DNA of 64,000 bases from Candidatus Latescibacterota bacterium (GTDB taxonomy: Bacteria; Latescibacterota; UBA2968; GCA-2709665), in the NCBI GenBank assembly GCA_965208835.1, contig OZ242358.1:3872001-3936000 (forward strand), given 5' to 3'. The position numbers and the translations under genes are program-made. Positions 11,553 to 60,632 of this stretch are shown here, in pieces (position 1 is the stretch's first letter; each line of letters starts with the position of its first letter). The notes below the pieces were generated by a model that was given only the letters and a program-made list of their open reading frames with translations, ran no database searches and had not been told where the DNA came from.

Positions 11553-11612
11553 AATAATCCCGTCACCCCACAAGACATCCTCATATTCCAACACACACCC
11601 GTCCCGATTCAA

Positions 11613-12446
11613 CTACGGCGCCTCCGGAACTTCCACCGGCAAGTCCAGCCGGTCGCCCCATTCCTTCCACGACCCGATATAGTTGCGCACATTTTGATAG
11701 CCCAGCAGGCGCAACGCCAGGTACGAATGGGAGGAACGGTACCCGCCCTGTCAGTAACACGCCACCGTCTGTTCCGGCATCACGCCTTCACGCTCGTACA
11801 TCTCCTGCAACGCTTCTGCCGGCTTGAACGCACCCGACTTGTCCAGATTGTCCAGATACTCGATATGCACGGCGGCGGGAATGGCGCCGCCCCGGGCGGA
11901 CCGCGCCACGCGACCGAAATATTCGTCGTCGCTCCGAGTATCCAGCGACACGAAATCCGCCTTGCCCAGCGAATCCCGAATCTCTTCGAAGCCAATGTGG
12001 CGTTCCTCGACGGGCGCCATTTCGAAAGAGGCCTGGTCCGGTACCGGGACTTCAACTGTGGTCTTGAATCCCGCCGCCGTCCAGGCCTGAAGCCCCCCGT
12101 TCAGAACATGCACGTCAGGGTGGCCCAGGTATTCACAGATCCAGAAACCACGAGCCGCGCGCATCCCGGAGTCGTTTTCGTAAAACACCACCGTCGCATC
12201 GGAGCTGATTCCCCGGCTTCCCATCAGGTAGGCCAGGGTCCACATGAACGCTTCGAATGCCTCGCGTCCGGTGTTGTTCAGACTAATTCCGTAGAGGTCC
12301 AGGTGCAGCGCCCCCGGAATGTGCCCGGAAACGTATTCGTGCGTCGGCCGGACATCCACAATGCATATCGATGCTTCCTGGAGGCGAACATGCAATTGCG
12401 CGGGCGTCATCAGCAGTTCGGGATTCGCATATCCCTTATCATCCAT
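11613..12446 (-). CDS. Two-domain sulfurtransferase (rhodanese), probable selenoprotein (in-frame TGA at catalytic Cys)
   Basis: GHIPGA and inactive N-domain. Track ORF stops at VACY-TGA (11751-11753), but the frame continues [31 protein letters not shown]...* to TAG 11613-11615, containing the C-terminal rhodanese signature. Confidence 0.88.
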
Positions 12447-13510
12447 CAATGTCCCTCCTGACCGTAATAGGCGTTGACTTCAATACATCGCCCGCCCAGG
12501 CGGGCCGAATCCCATCCCGCCAGGATTGGCGCCAGGGAATACAGGCCGTCGCGATAGTCGTTCAGTATACCCCCCCGATGCCCCGAACGCACCGCCTCCA
12601 CAAAGATCCGATCCTGCTCGAACCAGGGATCGAACTCCCCGCCCCGATAGACGGTCTCTCCGTTCAGATCGATTCGGTCGTAGTTAAAGATCTCCAGTCG
12701 TCCACCCTCGAAGAAAAACGTGAACCACGGCTGTGGCGTACCGGACGGGTCCGCACGCACGAACGTCATCGTCATTGTCGCTCCGTTGTCCAGCCGGAAA
12801 TGGAAGGAGGACGAGAGCGGATCGCTGAAAACCTCGGACTGCTCGAAATAGAACGCCTGGACTTTATCGACTTCCAATCCGGTTGTAAACCGGACGTAGT
12901 CCACGGCGTGCACGCCCCAATCGAGCGCGGGACCCCCCGATTGGTCCATCTGGCGCCACCAGGAAGCCCCTTCCATTCCCTCCTTACGCGGCGGCGGTCC
13001 GCCCACGGATCGAAACACGACGTGCACGATCCGCTTCTCCGCAAGAATCCGCCGCGCCTCGCGGAACAGCGGTCGATATCGTTCGCGAAAACAGACCGTG
13101 CTCAATACCTCCGCCTTCCGGACCGCCCGGTCGATCTCCAGAGCCACGGCCATCCGAGTCGCCTGCGGCTTTTCGCTGAACAGATGAATTCCGCGTTCCA
13201 CGGCTCTGATTTCGACGTCCGTGCGGGCAAAGGCGGGCACAATCGAAAAGAGCACGTCAAACCGCTCGTTCTCTACCATTTCGCGACCATCGGCATAGAC
13301 CGCCGGGATCTCAAAACGCTCCGCCGTACGTCGCAGGGCCGCGGCATCCACGTCGCATGCCGCTACGACGTCCACGCCCAGCTTCTTCAGGTTCGGAATG
13401 TGGGTCTGGTTTGCCCACGACCCGGTACCGTATATCGCAGCCCGGACGGCTCGCTCGGATGCGTTCGCCGAATCCGACCGCGCATCGTTTTCTCTGTGTT
13501 CGTTTGCCAC
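12446..13510 (-). CDS. Gfo/Idh/MocA family NAD(P)-dependent oxidoreductase
   Basis: AIYGTGSWA Rossmann loop, HLFSEKP, GGPALDWGVHAVD; probable GTG start at 13510; its stop overlaps the start of the sulfurtransferase. Confidence 0.88.
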   Translation of the reverse strand: MANEHRENDARSDSANASERAVRAAIYGTGSWANQTHIPNLKKLGVDVVAACDVDAAALRRTAERFEIPAVYADGREMVENERFDVLFSIVPAFARTDVEIRAVERGIHLFSEKPQATRMAVALEIDRAVRKAEVLSTVCFRERYRPLFREARRILAEKRIVHVVFRSVGGPPPRKEGMEGASWWRQMDQSGGPALDWGVHAVDYVRFTTGLEVDKVQAFYFEQSEVFSDPLSSSFHFRLDNGATMTMTFVRADPSGTPQPWFTFFFEGGRLEIFNYDRIDLNGETVYRGGEFDPWFEQDRIFVEAVRSGHRGGILNDYRDGLYSLAPILAGWDSARLGGRCIEVNAYYGQEGH

Positions 13511-13514
13511 GTCC

Positions 13515-14792
13515 CTACCCATTCGCCAGGGACTCCGCTGTCTGAACGATGGTTTGCTCCTCGTCCTGGAACCTTGCCGGTTCGCCGTAATAGGGGTACG
13601 CGTTGGGCTCGTACCCGCCCTCCTCGTAGTGCCGATCAGTACAGAGGTATCCGATTTCGTCGTTCGCATATCCAACCGGCCAGACGTCATCCGCGTCGAC
13701 CAGTCCCCTCAGTCGCTTCTCGATGGCGTGACCGATCTCCTGTACCGGCTCGCCCGGTATGGTGACACACGTCAGCGGGCCTACCGCCATCAACTGCATT
13801 TCCGTTGCGCGGCTGTCGGGAATGCCGCCCCTGGCGATCATCTCAAGAACGCCGCTGGCCCACGGCCCGGTCAGCAGGCGGCCTCTCGCGCTCTCATCAG
13901 CCGCCTTCTCCCTGAGGTCTTCTACGGGATCGTGTTCGCCGAATGCGATTCGCACGTCGGTTCGCCGCGCATTCAATTGCGAGGACCGCCGGGTCTTCAG
14001 ACTCCCTGCCACGCGCACCACTTCTCGGCCCAGTTCTTCGCCGCAGGCGTCCAACTCGGCCTTGGTGGCGGATTTGAACCCTCCTGTTTCCCGATTGATT
14101 ACCGCGGGCCGGACATTCCCGAAACACCCTGCCAGAAACAGCGCCCTACACCCCATCGCATCTTCTATCACGCGACGGGCGATACCCGCGTAGTCGGGCG
14201 AAATATAGCCCTCGGACCCACTTTTAGTGGTGGTATGGCACGAATAGTGAAACAGTACCGCCTGCGGCGTTCCGTCCTCCGCCTCGACCAAAAGCACGCG
14301 GGCCCGCCGATCCACGATTCCGCCGAAATTCTGCATCATGCCCGACGTACCGGGCAGCGGCCTTCGGCTAATGTTGAAATGCGCCGACCCACAGCCCAAC
14401 CCCATCCGTACCGGCTTGATGTCCGCCGCCGCGCGGACGATGCTCTCCGCGGTTTCTTTCTCGATCGTATCCATCCACCCCTCAGGCGGTTCCATTCCCA
14501 GCGACGGAAGCGTTGCCGGGGCTGAATGCGTGTGGCTGCACGCTACCATAACGTGATCCCCCGGAATACCGCACGCCGCGGTCACCCGTGCACGAATCCG
14601 GTCGGTTGTCTCTTTCGTCACGCCGATTACATCCAGGGTGGCGATCGCCGTCCTCACGCCTCCCTCATCGAACACGATTGCGCGGACTTCCAGCGGGTAC
14701 AGTACCGAGTGCGAGGGATTCGAACTCCAGTGCCCCTGCAGAACGGGACCCGGTTCCGGCGTTATGTCTGACGATGCGACGCCGCTCTTCAT
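13515..14792 (-). CDS. Neutral/alkaline ceramidase-like hydrolase
   Basis: DITP, SHTHSAP, YSCH, ISPDY, GCFGNV, PGEP, GYAN..GY, YEEGGYE motifs. Confidence 0.75.
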   Translation of the reverse strand: MKSGVASSDITPEPGPVLQGHWSSNPSHSVLYPLEVRAIVFDEGGVRTAIATLDVIGVTKETTDRIRARVTAACGIPGDHVMVACSHTHSAPATLPSLGMEPPEGWMDTIEKETAESIVRAAADIKPVRMGLGCGSAHFNISRRPLPGTSGMMQNFGGIVDRRARVLLVEAEDGTPQAVLFHYSCHTTTKSGSEGYISPDYAGIARRVIEDAMGCRALFLAGCFGNVRPAVINRETGGFKSATKAELDACGEELGREVVRVAGSLKTRRSSQLNARRTDVRIAFGEHDPVEDLREKAADESARGRLLTGPWASGVLEMIARGGIPDSRATEMQLMAVGPLTCVTIPGEPVQEIGHAIEKRLRGLVDADDVWPVGYANDEIGYLCTDRHYEEGGYEPNAYPYYGEPARFQDEEQTIVQTAESLANG

Positions 14793-40291: not shown

Positions 40292-42313
40292 ATGGCGGAA
40301 AGCGCCAGAATACAGATTGACGGACGGCCAGGTGAATTTCCGTTTCCAGGCACCCCCGACGTGGGCGACGGAGGCGATGCCGCAATCTGGGTCGAAAAAC
40401 ACATCAGCCAGGGCGCCTGCGCCTACCCCATCACGTCTTCCTCCATTCTGGGAGAGAAATACAGCGCGGTGGTGTCCAACGGCGGCGTCAACCTCTGGGG
40501 CGACACCCTGATCTTCATCGAACCCGAGTCCGAACACAGTTCGGCTTCAGCGGCCGAAGGCTTTTCGGTGGCCGGCGGCCGGGTCACCAACTTCACCTCC
40601 GGCCAGGGCCTCGTTCTGATGAAGGAGGTGCTGTACACAATCTCGGGCAAACGTCTTCCGGCGGTCTTCCACATCGGCGCGCGCGCGTTGACCTCCCAAT
40701 CGCTCAATGTACACGCGGGCCACGATGACATCATGGCCGTTGCAGACTGTGGATGGGGCATCGTATTCGCCCGGAACACGCAGGAAGTCATGGACACCAC
40801 GCTCATCGCGCGCCGTGCCGCGGAAGCTTCCCAGACACCGTTCATGGTTGTGCAGGATGGATTCCTCACAACCCATACGGTGCAGAACGTCATGGCCATA
40901 GAGCCTGAACTCATGAAGCTTTTTGTCGGACGCCCGGAAGACAAGATTCAGAATCTGATGGATGTCGACAATCCGATGATGAGCGGCGTTGTTCAGAACC
41001 AGGACAGCTATATGAAGGGCAAGATCGCCCAGCGGTACTTCTACGATCGCGTTCCGGACGACCTGCAGGAAGCCATGCAGGAATTCTACAGGATGACCGG
41101 AAGGCGCTACGACATGATCGACGGATATCGGCTCGAAGACGCCGAGTACATCATCGTGGGTATGGGCAGCATGCTCGAGACCGCCCTCACCGCCGTCGAC
41201 TGGCTGCGGGAGACCGAAAACCTGAAAGTGGGCGCCCTTCACGTCACGTCGTTCCGCCCGTTCCCGGGCGTTGAGATCGTGGAGGCCCTGAAGAACGCAA
41301 AGGTCGTTTCCGTCGTGGAACGCATGGACAACCCCCTTGCGCAGTCCAATCCGCTTACCGCCGAAATCAAGTCTGCCTTCGTCGATGCCGCCTGCGGCTC
41401 GAACGGTTATCCGAGGATCGAACGCATCCCCAAGATTCTATCGGGGATGGCCGGCCTGGGAAGCCGCGACGTCCGGCCGGGCGACTTCATTGCCGCGGTC
41501 AGAAATATGCAGGCGGCGGCACCCCGGCGGAAGGAGCTCTTCGTCCTCAATATCGAACACGAACTGGCCCTTCAGAGGCAGCCCGATCCGGGAACACGGG
41601 AAGTCGGGGCCTTCGCGATGCGCGGGCACTCGATCGGCGGATACGGATCCGTTACGACAAATAAGGTTATCGCCACATTGTTGGCGAACCTGGGACTTCA
41701 CGTACAGGCCTACCCGAAATACGGATCGGAAAAGAAGGGTCTGCCCACCACCTATTACCTCACCGCAGCCAACGAACACATCCGGACCCACTCCGAACTG
41801 GAAGTCGTGGACTTTGTGCCGCTCAACGACGTCAACGCCTTCAATACCGCCAATCCGCTTGCCGGCGTTGTCGACGGCGGTATGGTCTTCATCCAGAGCC
41901 CCCATGCGGAGGCTGAGAAGGTATGGGACAATGTTCCCGGATGGGCCAAAAAGACATTCCGCACCAGAAACATCAAACCTCTTGGCCTGGATGCCGTCAA
42001 AATTGCCCTGGAAGAAGCACCGTCGCCGGATCTGATGCAACGTTTCCAGGGCATTGTTCTTCTGGGGATCTTCCTGAAACACACGCCCTTTCAGAAAGAC
42101 CTGAATCTCACGGAAGACGAGCTGTTCGTGAACGTGGAAAATGCGGTCAACAAATACTGGGGCAGCAAGGGCAAGGGCGTCGTTGACGCCAACATGAACG
42201 CGATCATGAGAGGTTACCGGGAAGTCTTCGAAGTCCCGCGGGAACTGATCGAAAGCACAATCGATCAGGAAACGGACGCACTTCCGGCCGGTTTGGTCTC
42301 GATCGGATGCTGA
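40292..42313 (+). CDS. Pyruvate:ferredoxin oxidoreductase, fused alpha+gamma subunit
   Basis: YPITSS, ESEHSS, FTSGQGLVLMKE, HIGARA, DGFLTTH, GGYGSVT, YGSEKKG motifs. Confidence 0.92.
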   Translation: MAESARIQIDGRPGEFPFPGTPDVGDGGDAAIWVEKHISQGACAYPITSSSILGEKYSAVVSNGGVNLWGDTLIFIEPESEHSSASAAEGFSVAGGRVTNFTSGQGLVLMKEVLYTISGKRLPAVFHIGARALTSQSLNVHAGHDDIMAVADCGWGIVFARNTQEVMDTTLIARRAAEASQTPFMVVQDGFLTTHTVQNVMAIEPELMKLFVGRPEDKIQNLMDVDNPMMSGVVQNQDSYMKGKIAQRYFYDRVPDDLQEAMQEFYRMTGRRYDMIDGYRLEDAEYIIVGMGSMLETALTAVDWLRETENLKVGALHVTSFRPFPGVEIVEALKNAKVVSVVERMDNPLAQSNPLTAEIKSAFVDAACGSNGYPRIERIPKILSGMAGLGSRDVRPGDFIAAVRNMQAAAPRRKELFVLNIEHELALQRQPDPGTREVGAFAMRGHSIGGYGSVTTNKVIATLLANLGLHVQAYPKYGSEKKGLPTTYYLTAANEHIRTHSELEVVDFVPLNDVNAFNTANPLAGVVDGGMVFIQSPHAEAEKVWDNVPGWAKKTFRTRNIKPLGLDAVKIALEEAPSPDLMQRFQGIVLLGIFLKHTPFQKDLNLTEDELFVNVENAVNKYWGSKGKGVVDANMNAIMRGYREVFEVPRELIESTIDQETDALPAGLVSIGC

Positions 42314-42437
42314 CCGGTCGTGTCCGTCCCGCTCACAGCGTGATTCCGGTCGCGTGACGATATGACGTCGATAGAAACATAAACCGTAAAGATCCGGCCG
42401 ATTGAGGTCGTTCAAGCCGGATCGGGAGTAAATTACC

Positions 42438-44081
42438 ATGTCGACCAATGGCAAAGGCGAGCCCTCCACACTGCTGAGCGTCAGTTCATTGGAGGAAATG
42501 GATGAGGAGCCGATCTCTTCGTCTCCACTCAACCTGCATACCCTGCTCGATATCGAAGACTTCAACGGCCGCGTTGTGGCCGGCTACAATACAGGCATTG
42601 CCGAACAGGGGTTGCCTGCCGACGTCGGCGTTGCCCGCAGCCTCGTGGGGCCGGGCACCGGCGCCCTTCGCGACTTCAGCTACATCGCGCCCGAGATCCC
42701 GGAATTCATCCAGGAGAACTGCGTCGGCTGCATGGACTGCGTCACCGAATGTCCCGATACGGCCATACTGGGCAAGATTGCGACCCGCGAAGACCTGGAC
42801 GCCGCGCTGGCCAGGACGACCGATCCGGAAAAGAGGGAATTCCTGCGCAACCAGTTTTCCGAGACTTCGAAGTACTACAAGAACTTTGAGAAAAAGGGCA
42901 AGGAAGGCGCTTACTTCGGCATCTTCATAGACCCCACCAAGTGCAAGGGCTGCGCCGAATGCGTCGAGGTCTGCGCCGACAAGGATGCCCTGAAAATGGT
43001 CACCAAAACGGAAGACAACCTGGAGGAATTCCGCGCTGCCTGGGACTTCCACAACGACCTGCCTGAATCTCCGAGCGAATATATCCTGGACAAATCCGTT
43101 CAGGACATGATGCTGGCCGAACGATCTCTGCTCTACGTGGGCGGCGCGGGATCATGCATGGGCTGCGGAGAAGCCACGGCCCTGCGTATGATGCTGGCGT
43201 CCACGGGTTATCTGCACGGGCCCGAAAACATCGGCCTCGTCGCATCCACGGGCTGCAACACCGTCTACACCTCCACCTATCCATACAACCCTTATACGGT
43301 GCCCTGGACCAACTCCCTCTTCGAAAACGGGCCCACCGATGCCATGGGCGTGCGGGCCCGCTGGGACCAGATGGGCTGGCGGGACAAGAAGATATGGGTC
43401 ATAGGCGGAGACGGGGCCATGCTGGATATCGGTTTCCAGGCGCTCTCACGGATGCTCATGTCAGGTATGAATATCAACGTCCTGGTCCTGGATACCCAGG
43501 TCTACTCCAATACAGGCGGACAGGCCTCCACCTCCAGTTACATGGGGCAGAACACCAAGATGTCCGTCCACGGCTCCGCCGTTCCCGGAAAAACCGAACG
43601 CCGCAAGGAACTCGGACAGATCTGCATGATGCATCCGGACACCTTCGTGGCCCAGACCATCTGCAGCCTGCAGAACCACTTCTACCGCGCGATCGCCGCG
43701 GCCAACGAGTTCGACGGCCCGGCCGTTATCAACGTATTCACCACGTGCCAGCCCGAACACGGTGTGGGAGACCACCTGGCCGGACACCAGGCCAAACTTG
43801 CCATGGAGTCCCGGGCATTCCCCATTTTCATCTACGATCCGCGCAAGGGAGAACGCATCAAGGAGCGGCTGGATCTCCGGGGCAATCCCGCCGTAAAGGA
43901 CGACTGGTATACCATTCGCAAAACCGGCGAAACCGTCGACTTTGTTACTTTCGCCCGGACCGAAGGGCGTTTCGCCAAGCACTTCGACAAAGACGGAAAC
44001 CCTTCCGAAACCTTGATGGCCGCCCAGGAAGACCGCCGGCAGAACTGGCGCATGCTCCAGGAGATGGCCGGCATTATCTAA
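42438..44081 (+). CDS. Pyruvate:ferredoxin oxidoreductase, fused ferredoxin(delta)+TPP-binding beta subunit
   Basis: CVGCMDCVTECP and CKGCAECVEVC 4Fe-4S motifs; SCMGCGE, ASTGC, GGDGAMLDIG, YSNTGGQ. Confidence 0.92.
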   Translation: MSTNGKGEPSTLLSVSSLEEMDEEPISSSPLNLHTLLDIEDFNGRVVAGYNTGIAEQGLPADVGVARSLVGPGTGALRDFSYIAPEIPEFIQENCVGCMDCVTECPDTAILGKIATREDLDAALARTTDPEKREFLRNQFSETSKYYKNFEKKGKEGAYFGIFIDPTKCKGCAECVEVCADKDALKMVTKTEDNLEEFRAAWDFHNDLPESPSEYILDKSVQDMMLAERSLLYVGGAGSCMGCGEATALRMMLASTGYLHGPENIGLVASTGCNTVYTSTYPYNPYTVPWTNSLFENGPTDAMGVRARWDQMGWRDKKIWVIGGDGAMLDIGFQALSRMLMSGMNINVLVLDTQVYSNTGGQASTSSYMGQNTKMSVHGSAVPGKTERRKELGQICMMHPDTFVAQTICSLQNHFYRAIAAANEFDGPAVINVFTTCQPEHGVGDHLAGHQAKLAMESRAFPIFIYDPRKGERIKERLDLRGNPAVKDDWYTIRKTGETVDFVTFARTEGRFAKHFDKDGNPSETLMAAQEDRRQNWRMLQEMAGII

Positions 44082-44267
44082 GAAGCTGTCTCAAAATTCC
44101 CAGCGGTCTTCGCGCGGCTGCAAGAGCGCCGGTCGGCGTTGGTCAAATCCACCCGTCTTACGAGATCGAGGCTGCGCTTGCTCGCCTCTCATAGGCGAAT
44201 TTTCCCGCCTTGACCGCCACTTTTTCGCTCGCGCTCGGGAACTCACCGGTAATTTTAAAACAGCTTC
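44082..44267 (-). mobile_element. MITE-like element copy 3 (186 bp, long variant)
   Basis: Starts immediately after the TAA stop of PFOR beta; flanks TAA/TGA; reverse copy of 32210-32395. Confidence 0.8.
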
Positions 44268-44308
44268 TGAACCCTCGCCGCAGGCAGTTTAAATGGTCTC
44301 TGCACTGA

Positions 44309-44351
44309 AAGCCTCTGGAGGAGTGCCTCCGGGGGTTTTCTTGTTTTGTTT
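44309..44351 (+). terminator. Rho-independent terminator of the PFOR operon
   Basis: gcctctggagg-agtg-cctccgggggt followed by a T-rich tail. Confidence 0.65.
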
Positions 44352-44381
44352 CCGCTCCTGCCGTGCGAAAGGGCAACATAT

Positions 44382-44410
44382 TTGACTTTTCGGGCGTCTA
44401 CGGGTAAATT
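44382..44410 (+). promoter_or_regulatory. Sigma70-type promoter for aceE
   Basis: TTGACT-N17-TAAATT. Confidence 0.55.
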
Positions 44411-44525
44411 CAGGAGCCGATTGGACATCGATCGATTCGCCTGTATCGGCCGAGCGGGTGGACGAGGTTTCCCCTCGCGCCGGAGAACACCAGGAATTCT
44501 GAAACAACCTCTAACGAGGCCGCGA

Positions 44526-47228
44526 ATGTCTGATAAAGTCATCCGAGTTCCCTCCCGAGACGTCGACCCCGCAGAAACCCAGGACTGGGTCGAGTCGCTC
44601 GACTACGCCCTGAAAAACTACGGTCCGGACCGGGTGCGCTTCCTGTTCAAGAAAATCGAAGAGTGGGCGCACCGTGCGGAAGTCGTCATCCCCTTCAGCG
44701 CCAATACGCCCTATGTCAACACGATTCCGGCGGACCAGCAGCACCCGTATCCGGGCAACCGCGAAATCGAACGCCGCATCAAGAGCATCATTCGATGGAA
44801 CGCGATGGCGATGGTGGTCCGAGCCAACCGGGAATACGATGGGATTGGCGGCCATATTTCCACCTATGCGTCGGCCGCCACGCTGCTCGAGGTGGGTTTC
44901 GACCACTTCTTTCACGGACGGGGCAACGGATTCGTGGGCGACCAGGTGTATTTCCAGGGGCACGCCGCGCCGGGTGTCTACGCGCGGGCGTTCCTCGAAG
45001 GCAGGATCGACGAGCAGGCCCTGGAAAATTTCCGCCGGGACCTCCGGCGCCCCGGCGGCCTCTCCTCCTATCCGCATCCATGGCTGATGCCGGACTTCTG
45101 GGAATATCCAACCGTATCCATGGGCCTGGCGCCCATAATGGGCATCTATCACGCGCGTTTCAACCGCTACCTGGAGGACCGGGGTCTCAGGGACACCTCC
45201 GGTTCCCACGTGTGGGTCTTCATGGGCGACGGAGAAACCGACGAACCTGAATCCCTCGGCGCGATTACCCTGGCGTCCAGGGAAAAGCTGGACAACCTCA
45301 TCTTCGTGATCAACTGCAATCTCCAGCGGCTGGACGGACCCGTACGCGGCAACGGCAAGATCATCCAGGAATTGGAAGCCGCCTTCCGCGGCGCCGGCTG
45401 GAACGTCATCAAGGTGATCTGGGGAGACGACTGGGACCCATTGCTGAATCGCGACCACGAAGGGATACTGGTCCAGCGAATGAACGAAGTGGTGGACGGC
45501 CAATACCAGAAATACACAGTTGAATCGGGCGAATATATCCGCAGAGATTTCTTCGGCACCCACCCCGGGCTGCTCGACATGGTCGACCACCTTTCGGACG
45601 AGCAGCTGCAGAAGATGCGCCGCGGCGGGCACGACCCGGAAAAGGTATTCGCCGCGTACAAGTCGGCCGTTGAGCACAAGGGTTCGCCCACCGTCATCCT
45701 GGCGAAGACAATCAAGGGTTACGGTGTAGGCGAATCCGGCGAGGGCCGGAACGTCACTCACCAGCAGAAAAAACTCAATGAAGACGAACTGCGGGAATTC
45801 CGATCTCGATTCGGGATTCCCATCTCGGACGACGAGGTCGCCGCCGCGCCCTTCTACCGGCCTCCTGAAGACAGTCCCGAGATCGAGTATATGAAACAAC
45901 GCCGCGAGGAGCTGGGCGGGTACCTGCCCCGCAGGCAGGTCAACACGGAGCCCCTCGCCGCTCCCGGTCTGCACCTTTTCGACGAATTCCTGAAGGGCAC
46001 GAAGGGGCGGCAGGCCTCGACGACGATGGCCTTCGTGAGGATGTTCTCGAAGCTCCTGCGCGATCCCGAGATCGGCAATCTCATCGTGCCCATCATTCCG
46101 GACGAAGCCCGCACGTTCGGAATGGAACCGCTCTTTCGTCAATGCGGAATCTACTCCCGCGTCGGCCAGCTCTACGAGCCCGTCGACGCCGACAGGCTTC
46201 TGTATTACCGGGAAGTCAGGGAGGGGCAGATCCTGGAAGAAGGCATCAACGAAGCCGGTTCCATGTGCTCGTTCATCGCAGCCGGCACCGCCTATGCGAC
46301 ATGCGGCGTGAACACAATCCCGTTTTTCATCTACTACTCCATGTTCGGCTTTCAGCGCATCGGGGACCTGATCTGGGCCGCAGCGGACATGCGGTGCAAG
46401 GGGTTTCTCCTCGGCGGCACGGCCGGACGGACGACGTTGAACGGAGAGGGTCTTCAGCACCAGGACGGCCACAGCCACGTGCTGGCCAACACCGTCCCCA
46501 ATTTGCTTACGTACGATCCTGCATATGCGTACGAAATCGCGGTCATCGTACAGGACGGGATCCGGCGGATGTACGGTAATCAGGAAGACGTCTTCTATTA
46601 TCTGACGCTGGGAAACGAACCCTACGACATGCCCGCCATGCCGGAGGGCGCCGGGGAAGGCATCATCAAAGGCATCTATAAGCTCAAGGAGCAGTCGCTG
46701 GAAAACGCGGCGCACCAGGTTCAACTGTTCGGCAGCGGCGCTATCCTGAGAGAGGCCATTCGCGCCCGGAGCATTCTGGCTGAGAGATATGACATCTCCG
46801 CGCAGGTCTGGAGCGTCACCAGTTACAAGGAACTGCGACGAGACGCCCTCGAAACCGAGCGCTGGAACCGATTACACCCGTCGGAACCCCCGCGCAAGCC
46901 CTACATCTCGGAAGTACTCGAAGACGCCCGCGGCCCCATCGTGGCCGCTTCCGATTACATGAAGATCCTGCCCGACATGATCCGACCGTGGGTGCCGCTG
47001 GATCTGGTTGCGCTGGGTACCGACGGCTTTGGAAGAAGCGATACCAGGGAGGCGCTTCGCCGGCACTTCGAAGTCGATGCCGAGTCCATCGCCGTCGCCA
47101 CGCTCCACGCCCTCGCCAGCCAGGGGAGGATCGGACCGGACCGGGTTGCGCGCGCCATCGAGGACCTTGGCGTCGACCCCGAAAAGGCCAATCCGGTCGC
47201 GGCCGGCCCAACATTGAGTTACGGATAG
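44526..47228 (+). CDS. aceE: Pyruvate dehydrogenase E1 (homodimeric type)
   Basis: DVDP.ET..W, IRWNAMAMV, GGHISTYAS, FQGH, SSYPHPWLMP, GDGETDE, NLQRLDGPVRGN, EGINEAG, GTDGFGRSD. Confidence 0.96.
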   Translation: MSDKVIRVPSRDVDPAETQDWVESLDYALKNYGPDRVRFLFKKIEEWAHRAEVVIPFSANTPYVNTIPADQQHPYPGNREIERRIKSIIRWNAMAMVVRANREYDGIGGHISTYASAATLLEVGFDHFFHGRGNGFVGDQVYFQGHAAPGVYARAFLEGRIDEQALENFRRDLRRPGGLSSYPHPWLMPDFWEYPTVSMGLAPIMGIYHARFNRYLEDRGLRDTSGSHVWVFMGDGETDEPESLGAITLASREKLDNLIFVINCNLQRLDGPVRGNGKIIQELEAAFRGAGWNVIKVIWGDDWDPLLNRDHEGILVQRMNEVVDGQYQKYTVESGEYIRRDFFGTHPGLLDMVDHLSDEQLQKMRRGGHDPEKVFAAYKSAVEHKGSPTVILAKTIKGYGVGESGEGRNVTHQQKKLNEDELREFRSRFGIPISDDEVAAAPFYRPPEDSPEIEYMKQRREELGGYLPRRQVNTEPLAAPGLHLFDEFLKGTKGRQASTTMAFVRMFSKLLRDPEIGNLIVPIIPDEARTFGMEPLFRQCGIYSRVGQLYEPVDADRLLYYREVREGQILEEGINEAGSMCSFIAAGTAYATCGVNTIPFFIYYSMFGFQRIGDLIWAAADMRCKGFLLGGTAGRTTLNGEGLQHQDGHSHVLANTVPNLLTYDPAYAYEIAVIVQDGIRRMYGNQEDVFYYLTLGNEPYDMPAMPEGAGEGIIKGIYKLKEQSLENAAHQVQLFGSGAILREAIRARSILAERYDISAQVWSVTSYKELRRDALETERWNRLHPSEPPRKPYISEVLEDARGPIVAASDYMKILPDMIRPWVPLDLVALGTDGFGRSDTREALRRHFEVDAESIAVATLHALASQGRIGPDRVARAIEDLGVDPEKANPVAAGPTLSYG

Positions 47229-47506
47229 TCGTGTCAGGTACCGGAAACAGGTTGCCATTGATCCGTCGGATCAAACCGGCTCGCCGCCGGCAGACTTTGA
47301 CGAACTGCAACGTGAGAGGCTGCTGAACCGTCTCTACGAAGAACAGGCATCCGCGAATTGACATCGTGAGGGCGTTCCGGTAACCGGGTTTGGCTGACTG
47401 CTGAGAGTTGACAGCTGTTTTTTCTGCTTCCGGTTGGGCCAATCCGGGCGGTTAATTTCCGGGACTGAACGCCGGCGTCGTCTGTAGCGCCCGAAAAGGA
47501 GGAACC

Positions 47507-48799
47507 GTGGCTGAGGAAATCAGACTTCCGGACCTTGGCGAAGGCATCGATCAGGGCGACGTGGTGCGCATCCTGGTCTCGGAAGGAGATTCGATCGAGG
47601 TCGATCAGCCCGTCATCGAACTTGAAACAGACAAGGCGCTGGTTGAAGTTCCATCGTCAGTTGCCGGAACCGTCGCTACGGTCAACGTCAGCAGTGGCGA
47701 AAGCATCTCACCCGGCGCCGTGCTCGTCACCGTCAACGCGGAACAGGCGGGCGACACCCCGGAAGCCGTACGGGAGTCGCACGCGAAGGACAAGAACGAA
47801 CAGCAGCCTCCCACGGACGCGCCGGCGGAACGGCGAGCGCCGCCCGATCCGGTGAACGCGGACACGGACGAAGAAACGCCCGCCGTCGTGAAATCCTCAA
47901 GCGTCACCGTGCCGGCCGCTCCTTCCGTGCGGCGGTTCGCACGGGAACTCGGCGTCGATCTCCGGCAGGTTCCGGGCAGCGGAGCGGGAGGACGGATCAC
48001 CCGTGACGACGTGAAGAGCTATGTACAGTCCTCCCTGAACGAATCGGCGCAGGCCGGACCCGTCGTCGCGCCTGACCTGCCGGACTTCACCCGATGGGGC
48101 CACGTCGAGCGACAACCCCTGCCAGGTGTCCGCAGAACCATTGCGCAGAACGTGGGCACGGCGTGGGCGCAGATCCCCCACGTCACGCAGTTCGACCGGG
48201 CCGACGTGACGGACCTGGAGGCTTTCAGGCAGCGACAAAAGGCCAGTACCGAAGCGCGGGGCGGCAAGCTCACGCCCACGCCATTTGTACTGAAAGCCGT
48301 TGTCAGCGCACTGAAGGCCTTCCCGCAGTTCAACGCCAGCCTGGACCAGGCGGCCGGACAGCTCGTCCTCAAGCACTACTACCACATCGGCGTGGCCGTT
48401 GATACGGAGCGTGGCCTGCTCGTGCCGGTTATCCGCGACGTCGACCGGCGCGACATCTTCGAACTGGCCATTCAACTCGACGACCTCGCCCGCCGCACGC
48501 GGGAGGGACGGGCCGATCTCGAAGAGCTTCAGGGCGGCACCTTTACCGTCACCAACCTGGGGAGCATCGGCGGGACTTCCTTCACTCCGATCGTCAATTT
48601 CCCCGAAGTCGCCATACTCGGCATGGGACGGTCCCGGCAGGAACCCGTCGTGCGCGATGGGCGCATCGAAGCCCGTCTCATCATGCCTGTCTGCCTGTCT
48701 TACGATCATCGCGTCGTGGATGGCGCCGACGGCGCACGATTCACAAGGCACCTGGTTGAGTCCCTCGAAAACCCGGAACGTCTGCTACTCGGGGGATGA
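47507..48799 (+). CDS. aceF: Dihydrolipoamide acetyltransferase E2
   Basis: Single lipoyl domain ETDKA; A.PSVRRFARELGVDL binding domain; catalytic YDHRVVDGA. Confidence 0.93.
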   Translation: MAEEIRLPDLGEGIDQGDVVRILVSEGDSIEVDQPVIELETDKALVEVPSSVAGTVATVNVSSGESISPGAVLVTVNAEQAGDTPEAVRESHAKDKNEQQPPTDAPAERRAPPDPVNADTDEETPAVVKSSSVTVPAAPSVRRFARELGVDLRQVPGSGAGGRITRDDVKSYVQSSLNESAQAGPVVAPDLPDFTRWGHVERQPLPGVRRTIAQNVGTAWAQIPHVTQFDRADVTDLEAFRQRQKASTEARGGKLTPTPFVLKAVVSALKAFPQFNASLDQAAGQLVLKHYYHIGVAVDTERGLLVPVIRDVDRRDIFELAIQLDDLARRTREGRADLEELQGGTFTVTNLGSIGGTSFTPIVNFPEVAILGMGRSRQEPVVRDGRIEARLIMPVCLSYDHRVVDGADGARFTRHLVESLENPERLLLGG

Positions 48800-48863
48800 A
48801 CCCCATTCCACAAACCCGATGGCCCGCACCAGGGCCATCCCGCTACCCTTGTCCGGAGCGACC

Positions 48864-50282
48864 ATGCCGGAAGGTACCCACAGGACCGACCTCCTCGTAA
48901 TCGGCGGCGGGCCGGGCGGTTACGCCGCCGCTTTCAGGTCGGCGGACCTCGGAATCCCGGTTACGCTGGTGGAAGCCGACGACCGGCTCGGAGGAACCTG
49001 CCTGCTCCACGGTTGCATCCCCTCAAAAGCCCTGCTGCACGTCGCAGGCCTGATTTCGGAATCCCGCGAAGCGGCAGCGTGCGGATTAACGTTCTCCGAA
49101 CCGGAAATCGATCTCGATAAAATGCGCGGCTGGAAAGACGGGATTCTCACGAAGCTCTCGCGCGGCCTCGACGCGTTGTGCCGTCGGCGCCGGGTCAGGC
49201 GCATCCGCGGCCGCGCCGCGTTCGAGTCTTCCCAACGGGTCCGAATCTCGGGCGGTGACGACGTCTCTAAGATCGACTTCGTGCATGCCATCGTCGCCAC
49301 GGGGTCCCGGCCGGCGTTGCCGCCAATTTTTGACATTGACAGTCCGAAAATCCTGGACTCGACCAGGGCGCTTGACCTGGAGAACATCCCCGATCGCATA
49401 CTTGCCGTAGGCGGGGGTATCGTCGGACTCGAACTGAGCACCGTCTACGCCCGGCTTGGAAGCCGGGTGACGCTCGTCGAGATTACCGACGGCCTCCTGC
49501 CCGGCGTGGACCGGGACCTGGTCAAACCCCTGCAAAAACACGTCGAAGGCATTTTCGACGGAATCCACGTCAACACCGCCGTCGCCTCCCTGGAAGAAGG
49601 CGAATACGAGATTACAGCAAGTTTTGATGGGGATTTCAAGGGGGGCTCGCAGGCCTTCGACAACATCCTGCTCTCTGCCGGCCGGGTTCCAAACACCGGG
49701 GATCTGGGGCTGGAAAACACGAGGGTCGAGCTCTCGGATGCCGGCTTCATTGTCGTCGACGGACACATGCGCACGGCCGATACCCGCATTTTCGCCCTTG
49801 GAGACGTTGTGGATGGCCCCGGGCTCGCCCACAAGGCCGCCCACCAGGGGAAAGTTGCCGCCGAGGTCATCGCCGGGCAACCCGCGGCCTTTGACAGCAT
49901 CGTCCCCTCCGTCGTCTACACGGACCCGGAGATCGCGTGGTGCGGCCTGACGGAAACCGAGGCGCGTATACAGGAGCATCCTGTCAAGACCGCCCGCTAC
50001 CCCTGGGCCGCCTCGGGCCGGGCTGCAACTATCGGCCGTACCGAGGGGCTTACGAAACTGATTTTCGACCCGGAAACCAGCCGAATTCTGGGGGCGGGGA
50101 TCGTCGGCCCCAACGCCGGCGAACTCATCGCCGAAGCCGTCCTCGGTGTCGAAATGGGCGCTGTCGCCGAAGACCTGGCGCACACGATCCACCCCCATCC
50201 TTCCCTGTCAGAATCCCTGGGCATCGCCGCCGAGGTACATCTGGGCACCGCGACCGACCTCTACATTCCAAAAAAGAGATAA
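48864..50282 (+). CDS. lpdA: Dihydrolipoamide dehydrogenase E3
   Basis: GGGPGGY, GTCLLHGCIPSK, GGGIVGLE, HPHPSLSE; start ATG 48864. Confidence 0.95.
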   Translation: MPEGTHRTDLLVIGGGPGGYAAAFRSADLGIPVTLVEADDRLGGTCLLHGCIPSKALLHVAGLISESREAAACGLTFSEPEIDLDKMRGWKDGILTKLSRGLDALCRRRRVRRIRGRAAFESSQRVRISGGDDVSKIDFVHAIVATGSRPALPPIFDIDSPKILDSTRALDLENIPDRILAVGGGIVGLELSTVYARLGSRVTLVEITDGLLPGVDRDLVKPLQKHVEGIFDGIHVNTAVASLEEGEYEITASFDGDFKGGSQAFDNILLSAGRVPNTGDLGLENTRVELSDAGFIVVDGHMRTADTRIFALGDVVDGPGLAHKAAHQGKVAAEVIAGQPAAFDSIVPSVVYTDPEIAWCGLTETEARIQEHPVKTARYPWAASGRAATIGRTEGLTKLIFDPETSRILGAGIVGPNAGELIAEAVLGVEMGAVAEDLAHTIHPHPSLSESLGIAAEVHLGTATDLYIPKKR

Positions 50283-58248: not shown

Positions 58249-58346
58249 GGCTGACCTCATATGGACGATAGGGGCGGAGGGGACCGGGAGCAGCAGACGA
58301 CATCGGACCATTTCGGGCATCGACCACGTTTGTCACGGAGCGATCC

Positions 58347-60632
58347 ATGAACATCAACCCGCCAATCCGGCTGGTTCTGGCCCTCCTTCTGTGGGCCTGT
58401 TCGGAGGAAGAGGCGGCGGTTAGCCTTTCCGGAGCAGTGGCGCGCCCGGGTGCTTACGCCCACAAGCCGGAATGGACGGTGGCCGATTACGTAGAGGCCG
58501 CCGGCAGTTATACCGCGGAAGCGGTCGTTTCCGAGGGAAGGTTGATCCGGGTACAGCGGGACAGCGTGACCAACGAGGAGACGCTCCGGTCGTGGTGGCC
58601 ACTGGTATCGTCGCCACCGGTCTTCGCAGGGGACGTAATCGTCATCCCGTTTCGGACGTACGCGGTGCAGATGGATTCCGTACGGCCGGTGGAAAACCTG
58701 ACCATTCAATGGAAGGACAGGGAGTATCGGGTTCCGGAAGCGTGGCTGGCCGAAGGCCGGACCGACTCGGGGGTGATGGTTGCTTCCGTGATTGGTACCG
58801 GCACGGTCGTTGGAAGCGCAGAAGGAGAGATCCTGGGCAGGTTTCAGTATCTGTACCTGCATCTCCACCCCCATGTCTACGACGAATTGGCGCTGCCTGC
58901 CCGAAGCCCGGTTGAGAACGACATGATCCTGGAAGATGCCGTTGGTGTCCATCAGAGCGTTTTTCCCAGACTCCGCCACCGGTCCGGAGTACGCGCCGAG
59001 ATGCCGCCGGCCGGGTATTTGCGGGTACTGGCAGGCGTGTGGCCAAAACCCAAGAGCAAGACGATGCCCGGTTCGGGCATGCGCAGACGGAAATACAGGG
59101 ACGGACGAGAGTGGACCACGTTTCCGGATGGCAGGCAGCGAGTGGTCTTCCCGGACGGGCGGGTGGAAGTGGAATTGCCCGACGGAGCGCGGGAAAATCG
59201 CCATGCCGACGGCAGGATCGAAATGACGGACGCGCGGGGAAACGTTCGGGTGACCCATCCTGATGGAGGGATCGCTGCCACATTCGCGGACGGCAACCGG
59301 GAAGAACGATTTGCCGACGGGCGCATCGTTCAGCACTTCAAGACCGGAACAGAGCGGACGATTTTTCCTGACGGCAGCGAGACGACGCGATTTGAGGACG
59401 GCACCCTCCGCGTGAAGCGCAGGAATGGGACCGTTGAGATGACCTTTCCCGAGGGAATGAAGGAGACCCGTTATGCGGACGGTCGAATCGTTGCCATAAC
59501 CGGTGAAGGACACCGGGTCACCGTGTTCCCGAACGGACGGCGGCTTACCCGGACACGGGACGGTACGGTGCTGGAGGAATTCGCGGACGGGCGGCGGGTA
59601 CAACGGGGTCCGGACGGCGAGCGTGTGGAGGTATTTATAGACGGGACCAGGCGAACCTTCATGAAGGACGGCTCCTCGGTTATTGAGAAACCTGGAGGCG
59701 GCCGCGTCGAGCGCCATGCGGATGGCTTGACCGTAGAGATGTACCCGGACGGGCGCGAAGTGCAGACCGGTGCCGACGGCGTCCGCCTGGAGGTGTTTCC
59801 CGACGGCCGGGAAGTACAGACCGACGCCGGTGGCAACCGGCTGGAGACGTTTCCGGACGGACGGCGTCTTCAGAGCGACGCAAAGGGCAACCAGGTAGAG
59901 GAGTTTCCGGATGGGACGCGGATCAAGACCTTTGTGAATGCCTACAGGTACTGGGGACCGTTAAGGAATGATCTTGCGGACGTCGACGAAACACCGGGCC
60001 GACTGTCGCCAGGTGGTCGCCTGCGGGTGTCGGGCGCTTTAATTTCCGATCTCGACGACCTGCTGGCGACTGTCTTCCGGCTGCCCGATGGCAATGTGTT
60101 TGAGTCGCCGGTTGAGCGGGAGGAAGGGCGGTTTTCCTGTGTGTTCCCGGAAAGTGTCCTGACGAAATCCGGACATTACCGTGTACAGGTCCTGGCGCAA
60201 CTCGCCGAAGGGGCCGTCGTGGTCGCCGACCGGCCCCTGGTCGTTGGGCATCCGCCGCCGCTCGGGAGATTTGTACTCGCGGTCATGCCGTTTCGAGGCG
60301 CGGAAGACGCCCGGAGCCGGCTTTCGCGGATGATCAACGCGACGCGCAGCCGACTGGGACTGCCGGCGCTTAAGGCGCATCCACCGCTGATCGATGCGGC
60401 CCGGGCGAGGTTGTGGGATGTCCTGGCGTCTGGCGGCCCTGCGACCGAACGGACGCGCTGGGGCGCGGAGAGTATTACCCGGGGTCCTTCCCTTGAGGAA
60501 GTATTCACCTATATGATGCACAGCGCCGCCCAGAGGCGGAGCATTCTGAACCGTGAATGGAAGCACGTGGGCCTGGCCGTGGATCAGGACGGCGCAGAAA
60601 TCGTGGCCGTGGTGATTCTTGACAAGACCTAG
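58347..60632 (+). CDS. Lipoprotein with SLBB domain, ~30 nine-residue (P/A)DG repeats (Tcp10/CPAP-like) and a degenerate CAP domain
   Basis: Lipobox LWAC; V.LSGAV.RPG.Y...AG....GDVIVIP; (F/Y)PDG repeats at ~59080-59935; IN..R...GL..L...ILNREW..VG.AV. Confidence 0.72.
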   Translation: MNINPPIRLVLALLLWACSEEEAAVSLSGAVARPGAYAHKPEWTVADYVEAAGSYTAEAVVSEGRLIRVQRDSVTNEETLRSWWPLVSSPPVFAGDVIVIPFRTYAVQMDSVRPVENLTIQWKDREYRVPEAWLAEGRTDSGVMVASVIGTGTVVGSAEGEILGRFQYLYLHLHPHVYDELALPARSPVENDMILEDAVGVHQSVFPRLRHRSGVRAEMPPAGYLRVLAGVWPKPKSKTMPGSGMRRRKYRDGREWTTFPDGRQRVVFPDGRVEVELPDGARENRHADGRIEMTDARGNVRVTHPDGGIAATFADGNREERFADGRIVQHFKTGTERTIFPDGSETTRFEDGTLRVKRRNGTVEMTFPEGMKETRYADGRIVAITGEGHRVTVFPNGRRLTRTRDGTVLEEFADGRRVQRGPDGERVEVFIDGTRRTFMKDGSSVIEKPGGGRVERHADGLTVEMYPDGREVQTGADGVRLEVFPDGREVQTDAGGNRLETFPDGRRLQSDAKGNQVEEFPDGTRIKTFVNAYRYWGPLRNDLADVDETPGRLSPGGRLRVSGALISDLDDLLATVFRLPDGNVFESPVEREEGRFSCVFPESVLTKSGHYRVQVLAQLAEGAVVVADRPLVVGHPPPLGRFVLAVMPFRGAEDARSRLSRMINATRSRLGLPALKAHPPLIDAARARLWDVLASGGPATERTRWGAESITRGPSLEEVFTYMMHSAAQRRSILNREWKHVGLAVDQDGAEIVAVVILDKT

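Follow-up and report, generated by a model that had tools for sequence, protein, structure and literature searches.

Does an in-frame TGA in a bacterial sulfurtransferase gene end the protein, or does it specify the catalytic residue? This question is raised by a 64,000-nucleotide stretch of contig OZ242358.1 from a Candidatus Latescibacterota bacterium (the whole stretch is called the window below), in which a sequence-only reading had proposed that a tandem rhodanese gene on the minus strand encodes a selenocysteine (Sec) enzyme that standard annotation would truncate. Alignment, conservation of TGA/Cys pairing, selection on the downstream codons and published Sec-rhodaneses all lent support to this proposal, and on such comparative evidence the residue encoded by UGA codon 232 is very probably selenocysteine in a two-domain rhodanese.

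A TGA codon at the catalytic position of a tandem rhodanese

The complete predicted selenoprotein coding sequence occupies positions 11613..12446 of the minus strand and comprises 277 codons (M1...U232...P277) followed by TAG; its product is a tandem rhodanese of the thiosulfate/3-mercaptopyruvate sulfurtransferase type. An AGGAGG hexamer resembling a Shine-Dalgarno sequence (12454..12459, minus strand) lies 7 nucleotides (nt) upstream of the ATG, within the end of the upstream gene. From the ATG at 12446 the frame reads MDDKGYANP...EQTVACY, with A-C-Y at codons 229–231, and then meets TGA at codon 232 (11751..11753, minus strand). This proposed Sec codon stands at the catalytic Cys position, and the next base is C (UGAC). 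Under translation table 11 the open reading frame (ORF) listing placed the rhodanese at 11751..12449, ending at the TGA; the 231-codon part given by such annotation (11754..12446, minus strand) holds an inactive N-terminal rhodanese domain and the start of the catalytic domain, and ends with strand 227–231 (TVACY). The frame stays open past the TGA for a further 45 codons (11616..11750, minus strand), up to a TAG at 11613–11615. Coordinates and translation agreed with the sequence-only reading, in which the frame ran on from VACY-TGA to a TAG 46 codons later. These 45 codons specify the active-site loop QGGYR, helix 236–247, strand 253–255 and helix 260–265 with its GSWKEWG motif.

For protein comparisons, the 277-residue read-through product was handled with C written for U. 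Pfam detected two PF00581 Rhodanese stretches in it (E 5e-36), and the predicted structure and Foldseek likewise gave two rhodanese-fold domains in one chain. An AlphaFold2 model built on an alignment of 39 full-length sequences had a mean predicted local distance difference test (pLDDT) score of 95.7 and a predicted template-modelling (TM) score, pTM, of 0.93. Foldseek matched the model to Thermus thermophilus rhodanese (1uar, TM 0.85) and Azotobacter vinelandii RhdA (1e0c, TM 0.84), with TM scores of 0.77–0.85 over 1uar, 1e0c, 3hzu, 1urh and the bovine and human TST/MST structures. In phmmer searches against PDB sequences, the best matches were again RhdA (E 3e-43) and 1uar (4e-40), followed by mycobacterial SseA/CysA proteins, bovine and human TST, E. 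coli SseA and human MST.

The phmmer alignments set U232 opposite the Cys of the CQTHHRS loop of RhdA, which we take to be the catalytic Cys of that enzyme, and opposite the loop Cys of 1uar and 3p3a; the claim that the TGA falls exactly on the catalytic Cys was borne out. RhdA and 1uar share with the window protein its two-domain fold, its length and its C-terminal SW.EWG motif, and the RhdA loop has the same Q after the catalytic residue and the same R at +5. They differ from it in overall sequence (∼32–33% identity), in carrying Cys where UGA is found here, and in having the loop QTHHR where the window protein has QGGYR. In the predicted model, strand 227–231 is followed by loop 232–235 and helix 236–247, with residue 232 starting the loop of the C-terminal domain. 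The N-terminal domain has ENDSGMR after the equivalent strand 85–89 (TVVFY) and no Cys, as in other tandem rhodaneses. Because codon 232 lies inside the catalytic domain, a stop there removes the active-site loop, the helix, the strand and the terminal helix; judging by the model, the 45 post-UGA codons are needed for a complete catalytic domain.

With Sec inserted, the product would be a cytoplasmic sulfurtransferase of the RhdA/SseA/COG2897 type with two rhodanese domains; its persulfide-carrying catalytic residue would be the Sec at codon 232 in an active-site loop U-Q-G-G-Y-R-S. SelB and tRNA-Sec would deliver the residue. Its selenolate would accept sulfane sulfur (or selenium) and hand it over to a thiophilic acceptor. 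Compared with the Cys found in homologues, the Sec centre should be more nucleophilic and should ionise at a lower pH. Reading of the UGA as a stop would yield a 231-amino-acid (aa) product with neither the active-site loop nor the end of the catalytic domain, which should be inactive.

Among the best 120 homologues listed by a protein database search, 21 were only 230–232 aa long (83% query cover, 62–91% identical), and the full-length homologues measured 275–303 aa, were 55–70% identical and had the active site CQGGYR. All 13 short proteins in alignment A1 stop at ...ACY, and the full-length ones run on as CQGGYR; in alignment A2, which holds all 21 short proteins, C230 was invariant and A229 and Y231 nearly so. 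A further database entry, the 337-aa protein P0053, matched the first 65% of the query at 82% identity before turning into unrelated sequence, which suggests a TGA-form rhodanese whose gene call is frameshifted.

A scan of species-representative genomes gave 80 loci, and the active-site codon was read from the DNA of each. It was TGA in 24 and Cys in the remaining 56, so that aligning homologues for Cys/TGA pairing, as proposed with the sequence-only reading, revealed a TGA that is not unique to one assembly. Together with the window, the 24 loci make up the 25 TGA genes, called Sec genes below. Ten of the 24 are labelled Latescibacterota, 11 Poribacteria, two Gemmatimonadota and one “uncultured bacterium.” The Cys loci are mostly from Acidobacteriota/Vicinamibacterales, with some from Binatota and Thermodesulfobacteriota, and include L007 (Latescibacterota) and L022. 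The column thus shows an in-frame UGA facing Cys in homologues, between conserved flanks. The rhodanese genes of the two loci labelled Gemmatimonadota (L002 and L005) group with Latescibacterota records, as does the whole neighbourhood of L002, and the phylum labels of these two metagenome-assembled genomes (MAGs) may be wrong.

In all 25 genes the frame after the TGA stays open for 44–51 codons, free of frameshifts and extra stops, and ends at the equivalent position. Nei-Gojobori (NG86) estimates over 40 codons after the TGA, for the 300 pairs of the 25 genes, gave a mean proportion of synonymous differences (pS) of 0.55 and of non-synonymous differences (pN) of 0.074 (pN/pS ∼0.14); the window and L014, for instance, differ after the TGA at 22 synonymous and six non-synonymous sites. 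Untranslated DNA would not behave in this way, and such strong purifying selection therefore argues that the 45 codons after the TGA are translated.

A quick maximum-likelihood tree (LG+G4, 80 rows) was computed with the active-site residue set to C throughout. One change on this tree explains the Sec/Cys labels, with a support of only 35 for the separating branch. A 27-row clade containing all Sec genes plus the Cys genes L007 and L022 was recovered with an SH-aLRT of 96. Locus L070 was missed by the search pattern and left out of the tree, of the hairpin-stability and codon comparisons and of the rule-based searches described below, for which the Cys genes therefore number 55.

Competing explanations for the interrupted frame

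Several results weigh against Sec at codon 232. Neither selA, selB, selD nor tRNA-Sec was found within the 64-kb window (38 ORFs searched with Pfam, plus tRNA and Rfam scans), and the 24 TGA loci, scanned for tRNAs, contained no tRNA-Sec. A scan independent of the Sec insertion sequence (SECIS), in which 3,395 TGA-read-through ORFs from 25 TGA sources were compared with 10,202 ordinary ORFs from 81 sources, found no second selenoprotein gene in the window or the loci. At 124 positions it aligned a TGA with Cys between conserved flanks; matching sources numbered 32–43 for each of the 25 rhodanese positions and 1–21 for each of the other 99. Of the non-rhodanese candidates with 4–21 matches, those whose coordinates were checked all fell in the region of the rhodanese gene, read in another frame. 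The window also had three uncovered ORFs with TGA read-through, which were considered as further selenoprotein genes and rejected as noise-like.

The RNA evidence points the same way. The bacterial SECIS consensus given in Fig. 2 of a 2026 review (PMC13188914) has an apical loop of 3–9 nt with G in the first two loop positions, a stem of at least 4 bp, a UGA-to-loop distance of 16–37 nt and a free energy of −7.5 kcal/mol or better. We searched for it with our own implementations of these rules, not with bSECISearch, and counted hairpins at −7.5 kcal/mol or better. A strict search with perfect stems found a compliant hairpin in 0/25 Sec genes versus 1/55 Cys genes, and a flexible search allowing bulges and suboptimal folds within 4 kcal/mol found one in 4/25 versus 25/55. 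With the energy limit set aside, the strict search gave a candidate of any kind in 10 of the 25 Sec genes and 31 of the 55 Cys genes. Rfam gave no match of any kind when the entire window was scanned with gathering thresholds, nor at E ≤10 over 11560–11860. RNAalifold found no conserved SECIS in the 25 genes, and the one hairpin next to the UGA that it did find lacked covariation. Finally, the predicted fold of the window RNA is not more stable than those of shuffled sequences (z +0.70); the same was true of 11690–11753 (z +0.80), the segment that the sequence-only reading had singled out for folding.

Outside the window, the two main phyla differ in what has been published. Sec-containing Group 4 hydrogenases were reported in 2026 from nine phyla, Poribacteria among them (PMC13582414), and this phylum therefore has Sec users. 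For Latescibacterota, our literature search found no paper on selenoproteins; the one paper it turned up that names the phylum (PMC8318568) does so only within a list of reconstructed genomes.

The lack of a consensus SECIS and of Sec machinery within 64 kb would suit a different explanation, namely that the gene is a programmed read-through gene in which a leaky UGA-C is decoded by near-cognate tRNA-Cys or tRNA-Trp with no Sec system, giving a low yield of Cys or Trp enzyme. UGA-C is a weak termination context, and all 25 genes have C as the base that follows the UGA. But the TGA has been kept in all 25 although a single mutation would turn it into TGC or TGT and although synonymous sites are near saturation, and retention at such divergence requires selection for the TGA itself. 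Moreover, the column is Cys in each of the 56 other loci, a classic Sec/Cys pair, and the rhodanese family is already accepted as a predicted selenoprotein family. We consider leaky read-through improbable.

A second explanation accepts Sec insertion but takes the 231-aa protein, as a stand-alone inactive rhodanese-like module, for the main functional product, with the full-length form a minor selenium-dependent isoform. Sec insertion competes with termination, and if it does so here both products are to be expected. The partitioning between the two outcomes is treated in PMC4513850. Such a role for the short form is nevertheless hard to reconcile with a stop placed straight after strand 227–231, which leaves the second domain incomplete, or with selection on the downstream codons as strong as in a normal coding region, and its chances appear slim.

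Were the window taken by itself, its single TGA could be put down to a nonsense mutation or to a sequencing or assembly error, leaving a pseudogene or a mis-called Cys gene. Such events do occur: in L070, an Acidobacteria MAG, the rhodanese gene (L070:7874-8740) has the active site CHGGYRS and a TGA replacing the Trp codon of its SWKEWG motif (L070:8666-8668), seen in one genome only, which is likely to be a nonsense mutation or sequencing error and contrasts with the conserved active-site TGA. The latter recurs as the same codon in 24 independent assemblies from different projects, closed chromosomes included, and is followed by 44–51 codons that are intact and, by pN/pS, constrained, so that an accident of this kind is scarcely credible. 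Equally hard to credit is a genome-wide sense meaning for TGA (genetic code 4 or 25), which the open frame alone would allow: TGA is an ordinary stop in the window, ending 13 of the 36 ORFs that we chose as genes from the ORF and Pfam results (TAG 17, TGA 13, TAA 6), among them the gene immediately upstream, it faces Cys and not Trp or Gly, and no other gene in the scan had a conserved in-frame TGA. Because the TGA is conserved, the frame behind it intact and under selection, and TGA otherwise an ordinary stop, we regard mutation, error and a changed code as effectively excluded.

Hairpins downstream of the UGA

RNAalifold on the 25 genes (alignment A3) returned only the hairpin GGGCGG-NUA-CCGYUC, 3 nt after the UGA, and a 4-bp helix ∼70 nt downstream. 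In the window the proximal hairpin is GGGCGG-GUA-CCGUUC (11734..11748, minus strand), and it is the sole hairpin conserved in all 25 TGA genes. Its cells were paired in 98% of cases; no pair was altered on both sides, and its covariation was no better than in shuffles. It was more stable in Sec than in Cys genes (mean −6.05 versus −2.94 kcal/mol) and kept more of its six pairs (5.88 versus 4.44). At a spacing of 8 from the UGA, it is too near for a consensus bacterial SECIS. A hairpin 3–17 nt past the UGA should lie within the mRNA channel of the ribosome while the UGA is being decoded, which makes it unlikely as a platform for SelB.

We built a covariance model (R1) from 16 of the 25 sequences, covering the UGA and the proximal hairpin; run over 652,782 bases from 32 sources, it matched rhodanese genes only. 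The 25 Sec genes scored 45–54 bits, the Cys genes L022, L007 and L015 scored 42, 31 and 20 bits, and everything else reached at most 14. We rejected the hairpin both as a Sec-specific element, the nearest Cys gene (L022) scoring 42 bits, and as an element shared with other genes, none of which matched.

Three other hairpins were considered and rejected as SECIS elements. The first is the GGUAC/GUACC hairpin of the sequence-only reading, GGGUAC...GUACCU with a 14-nt loop (11718..11745, minus strand). It forms in the minimum-free-energy (MFE) structure of the window and, as had been said, it is no textbook SECIS, the loop of 14 nt lying 12 nt from the UGA; it is not conserved beyond the window and its closest relatives, its columns being unpaired in L005, L009, L013 and others. 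The fold that contains it was matched by 150 of 200 shuffles. The second, GUACCUGGC[GUUGCGCCU]GCUGGG.UAU (11697..11724, minus strand), has a loop opening with G-U at 35 nt past the UGA and is the nearest fit to the SECIS rules in the window. Its 6-bp core, CCUGGC[GUUGCGCCU]GCUGGG at spacing 35, was the best strict candidate there and is weak (−5.7 kcal/mol). It averaged +1.0 kcal/mol in Sec genes versus +0.5 in Cys genes and was not kept in Poribacteria; 80.9% of its cells were paired, with no pair altered on both sides and covariation again at the level of shuffles. The third, CCAACGCC-UAUUU-GGCGUUG, was found in Poribacteria (L013, z −3.4); other clades need another register for it, and its loop does not start with G.

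Sec and Cys genes also differed in codons and residues near the UGA. Leu at codon 13 after the UGA (window 11712–11714; A3 columns 49–51) was UUG in 23/25 Sec genes versus 5/55 Cys genes, and Tyr at codon 4 was UAC in 25/25 versus 37/55. The loop Arg was followed by Ser-Ser (UCY UCY; window 11730–11735, A3 columns 28–33) in every Sec gene, and the Cys genes had Ala at these two positions in 50/55 and 54/55. The biased Leu codon lies in a nearly invariant GGCGUUGCG tract 33–41 nt downstream of the UGA. These biases may stem from RNA constraint, from tuning of the active site or from shared ancestry.

One possibility, which we put forward tentatively and think unlikely on balance, is that the Latescibacterota/Poribacteria clade of Sec-rhodaneses is recoded by a non-consensus signal. 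Candidates for it may be the hairpin next to the UGA, which is invariant, the pyrimidine tract that follows this hairpin, or the GGCGUUGCG tract. If so, these phyla would use a mode of SelB-mRNA recognition that current SECIS-based gene finders miss.

Known selenoprotein families and genomic neighbourhood

The sequence-only reading had called the gene a hidden selenoprotein while stating that Sec-containing rhodaneses had been reported. The statement was accurate, and specialists can hardly have overlooked such a case, because the family has been predicted to contain selenoproteins since 2005. COG2897-type rhodanese-related sulfurtransferases were described as a new selenoprotein family, with three sequences, from the Sargasso Sea (2005; PMC1088965). 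Three genes for a “Sulfurtransferase COG2897” selenoprotein followed from Olavius symbionts (2007; PMC1976440), and GOS (2008; PMC2398784) added Sec rhodanese-related sulfurtransferases (eight sequences of cd01449 and one of COG2897). A 2022 review includes COG2897 SseA in its table of selenoprotein families (PMC9312934), and the 2026 review lists a “form 4” (PF00581, motif UxxG, example MCY3690685.1; PMC13188914).

The window protein resembles this COG2897/SseA family, as the publications describe it, in being of the tandem type, in its predicted Sec at the catalytic Cys, in the UxxG motif (here UQGG, in a PF00581 protein) and in its many Cys homologues; like the family, it is known from sequence and not from biochemistry. 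In NCBIfam and the PDB, its best relatives are SseA/3-MST/TST proteins. The likeness to “form 4” is one of architecture and motif, the published examples (AACY01016424 and MCY3690685.1) being known by description. Two differences stand out: neither Latescibacterota nor Poribacteria is named for this family in the publications consulted (zero times in the main text of PMC13188914), and the 2005 selenoproteins are stated to have SECIS-like stem-loops (PMC1088965), whereas no conserved one was found in the clade of the window gene. The gene appears to belong to a known selenoprotein family that rests purely on prediction, as a new member and perhaps as a new clade at phylum level.

Two NCBIfam selenoprotein models, NF041203 (rhodanese_LYCAU, CxU) and NF045694 (TsoB), also describe rhodanese domains with Sec in or beside the active-site loop, but those proteins are single-domain or DsbD-fused, whereas the window protein is tandem. 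It scored 41 bits against a cut-off of 115 for NF041203 and 23 against 805 for NF045694. No NCBIfam model reached its cut-off for the window protein, the best being NF008557 (3-mercaptopyruvate sulfurtransferase; 102 versus 250 bits). That selenoprotein models exist for other rhodanese families and none is reached here is consistent with the truncation of database entries; NCBI has named one of these (P0010) “rhodanese-like domain-containing protein.”

The gene would thus be a textbook case of a selenoprotein shortened by annotation, the 21 short relatives among the best 120 listed being stored as fragments with no active site. With such entries and no fitting NCBIfam model, metabolic reconstructions of Latescibacterota and Poribacteria are expected to carry a dead sulfurtransferase and to miss a marker of selenium use. 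Two poorly known phyla would be added to the range of a selenoprotein family never studied at the bench, and the close kinship of its Sec and Cys forms suits a direct comparison of selenium and sulfur in persulfide chemistry. Recoding of a UGA with no recognisable consensus SECIS would be the only partly novel point.

Upstream of the rhodanese on the minus strand is an ORF for a Gfo/Idh/MocA-family oxidoreductase (12446..13690), whose TGA stop and the rhodanese ATG have one base in common (TGATG, 12444–12448). The start of this upstream ORF probably lies well downstream of 13690, because the ORF as called runs 176 nt into the next gene and its Pfam match begins only at residue 83. The translational coupling proposed by the sequence-only reading agrees with this overlap in the window, but the whole partner gene was present only at L001 and L003 (∼80% identity), with a short remnant at L002. 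Farther upstream, at 13515-14792 (minus strand), an ORF does stand where a ceramidase-like hydrolase had been placed; its match to Ceramidase_alk is weak (E 7e-10) and confined to the N-terminal part (profile positions 36–231 of 509).

The window is syntenic with L001–L003, where neighbouring genes are ∼80–95% identical over at least eight genes, which places its source among Latescibacterota-like bacteria, and the Gfo/Idh/MocA and ceramidase-like upstream genes are common to these loci only. A convergent EVE-domain gene, a sulfatase and two M19 dipeptidases occur at further Latescibacterota loci as well. At seven other loci the flanks are unrelated and include genes for an amidase, an aldo/keto reductase, MatE, a seryl-tRNA synthetase and a DNA methylase. 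A conserved operon partner for the rhodanese was rejected, as the upstream genes differ across loci.

Seryl-tRNA synthetase also charges tRNA-Sec. Its gene stands directly upstream of the Sec-rhodanese at L013 (L013:8556-9947), in a Poribacteria subclade of which L013 was searched with Pfam. A tRNA-Val and tRNA-Asp pair lies beside it (L013 8346-8526) and is found again in L033, L034 and L045; the position of the synthetase is probably plain synteny.

Two observations concern distant parts of the window. At 58257–60632, a plus-strand ORF of 761 aa, carrying Tcp10_C repeats (E 2.5e-34), overlaps almost fully with a 486-aa minus-strand ORF that has no Pfam match, and one of the two is presumably spurious. 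At 40292–50282, a 2-oxoacid:ferredoxin oxidoreductase pair adjoins a pyruvate dehydrogenase E1-E2-E3 cluster, which sets oxygen-sensitive and aerobic routes of 2-oxoacid oxidation side by side.

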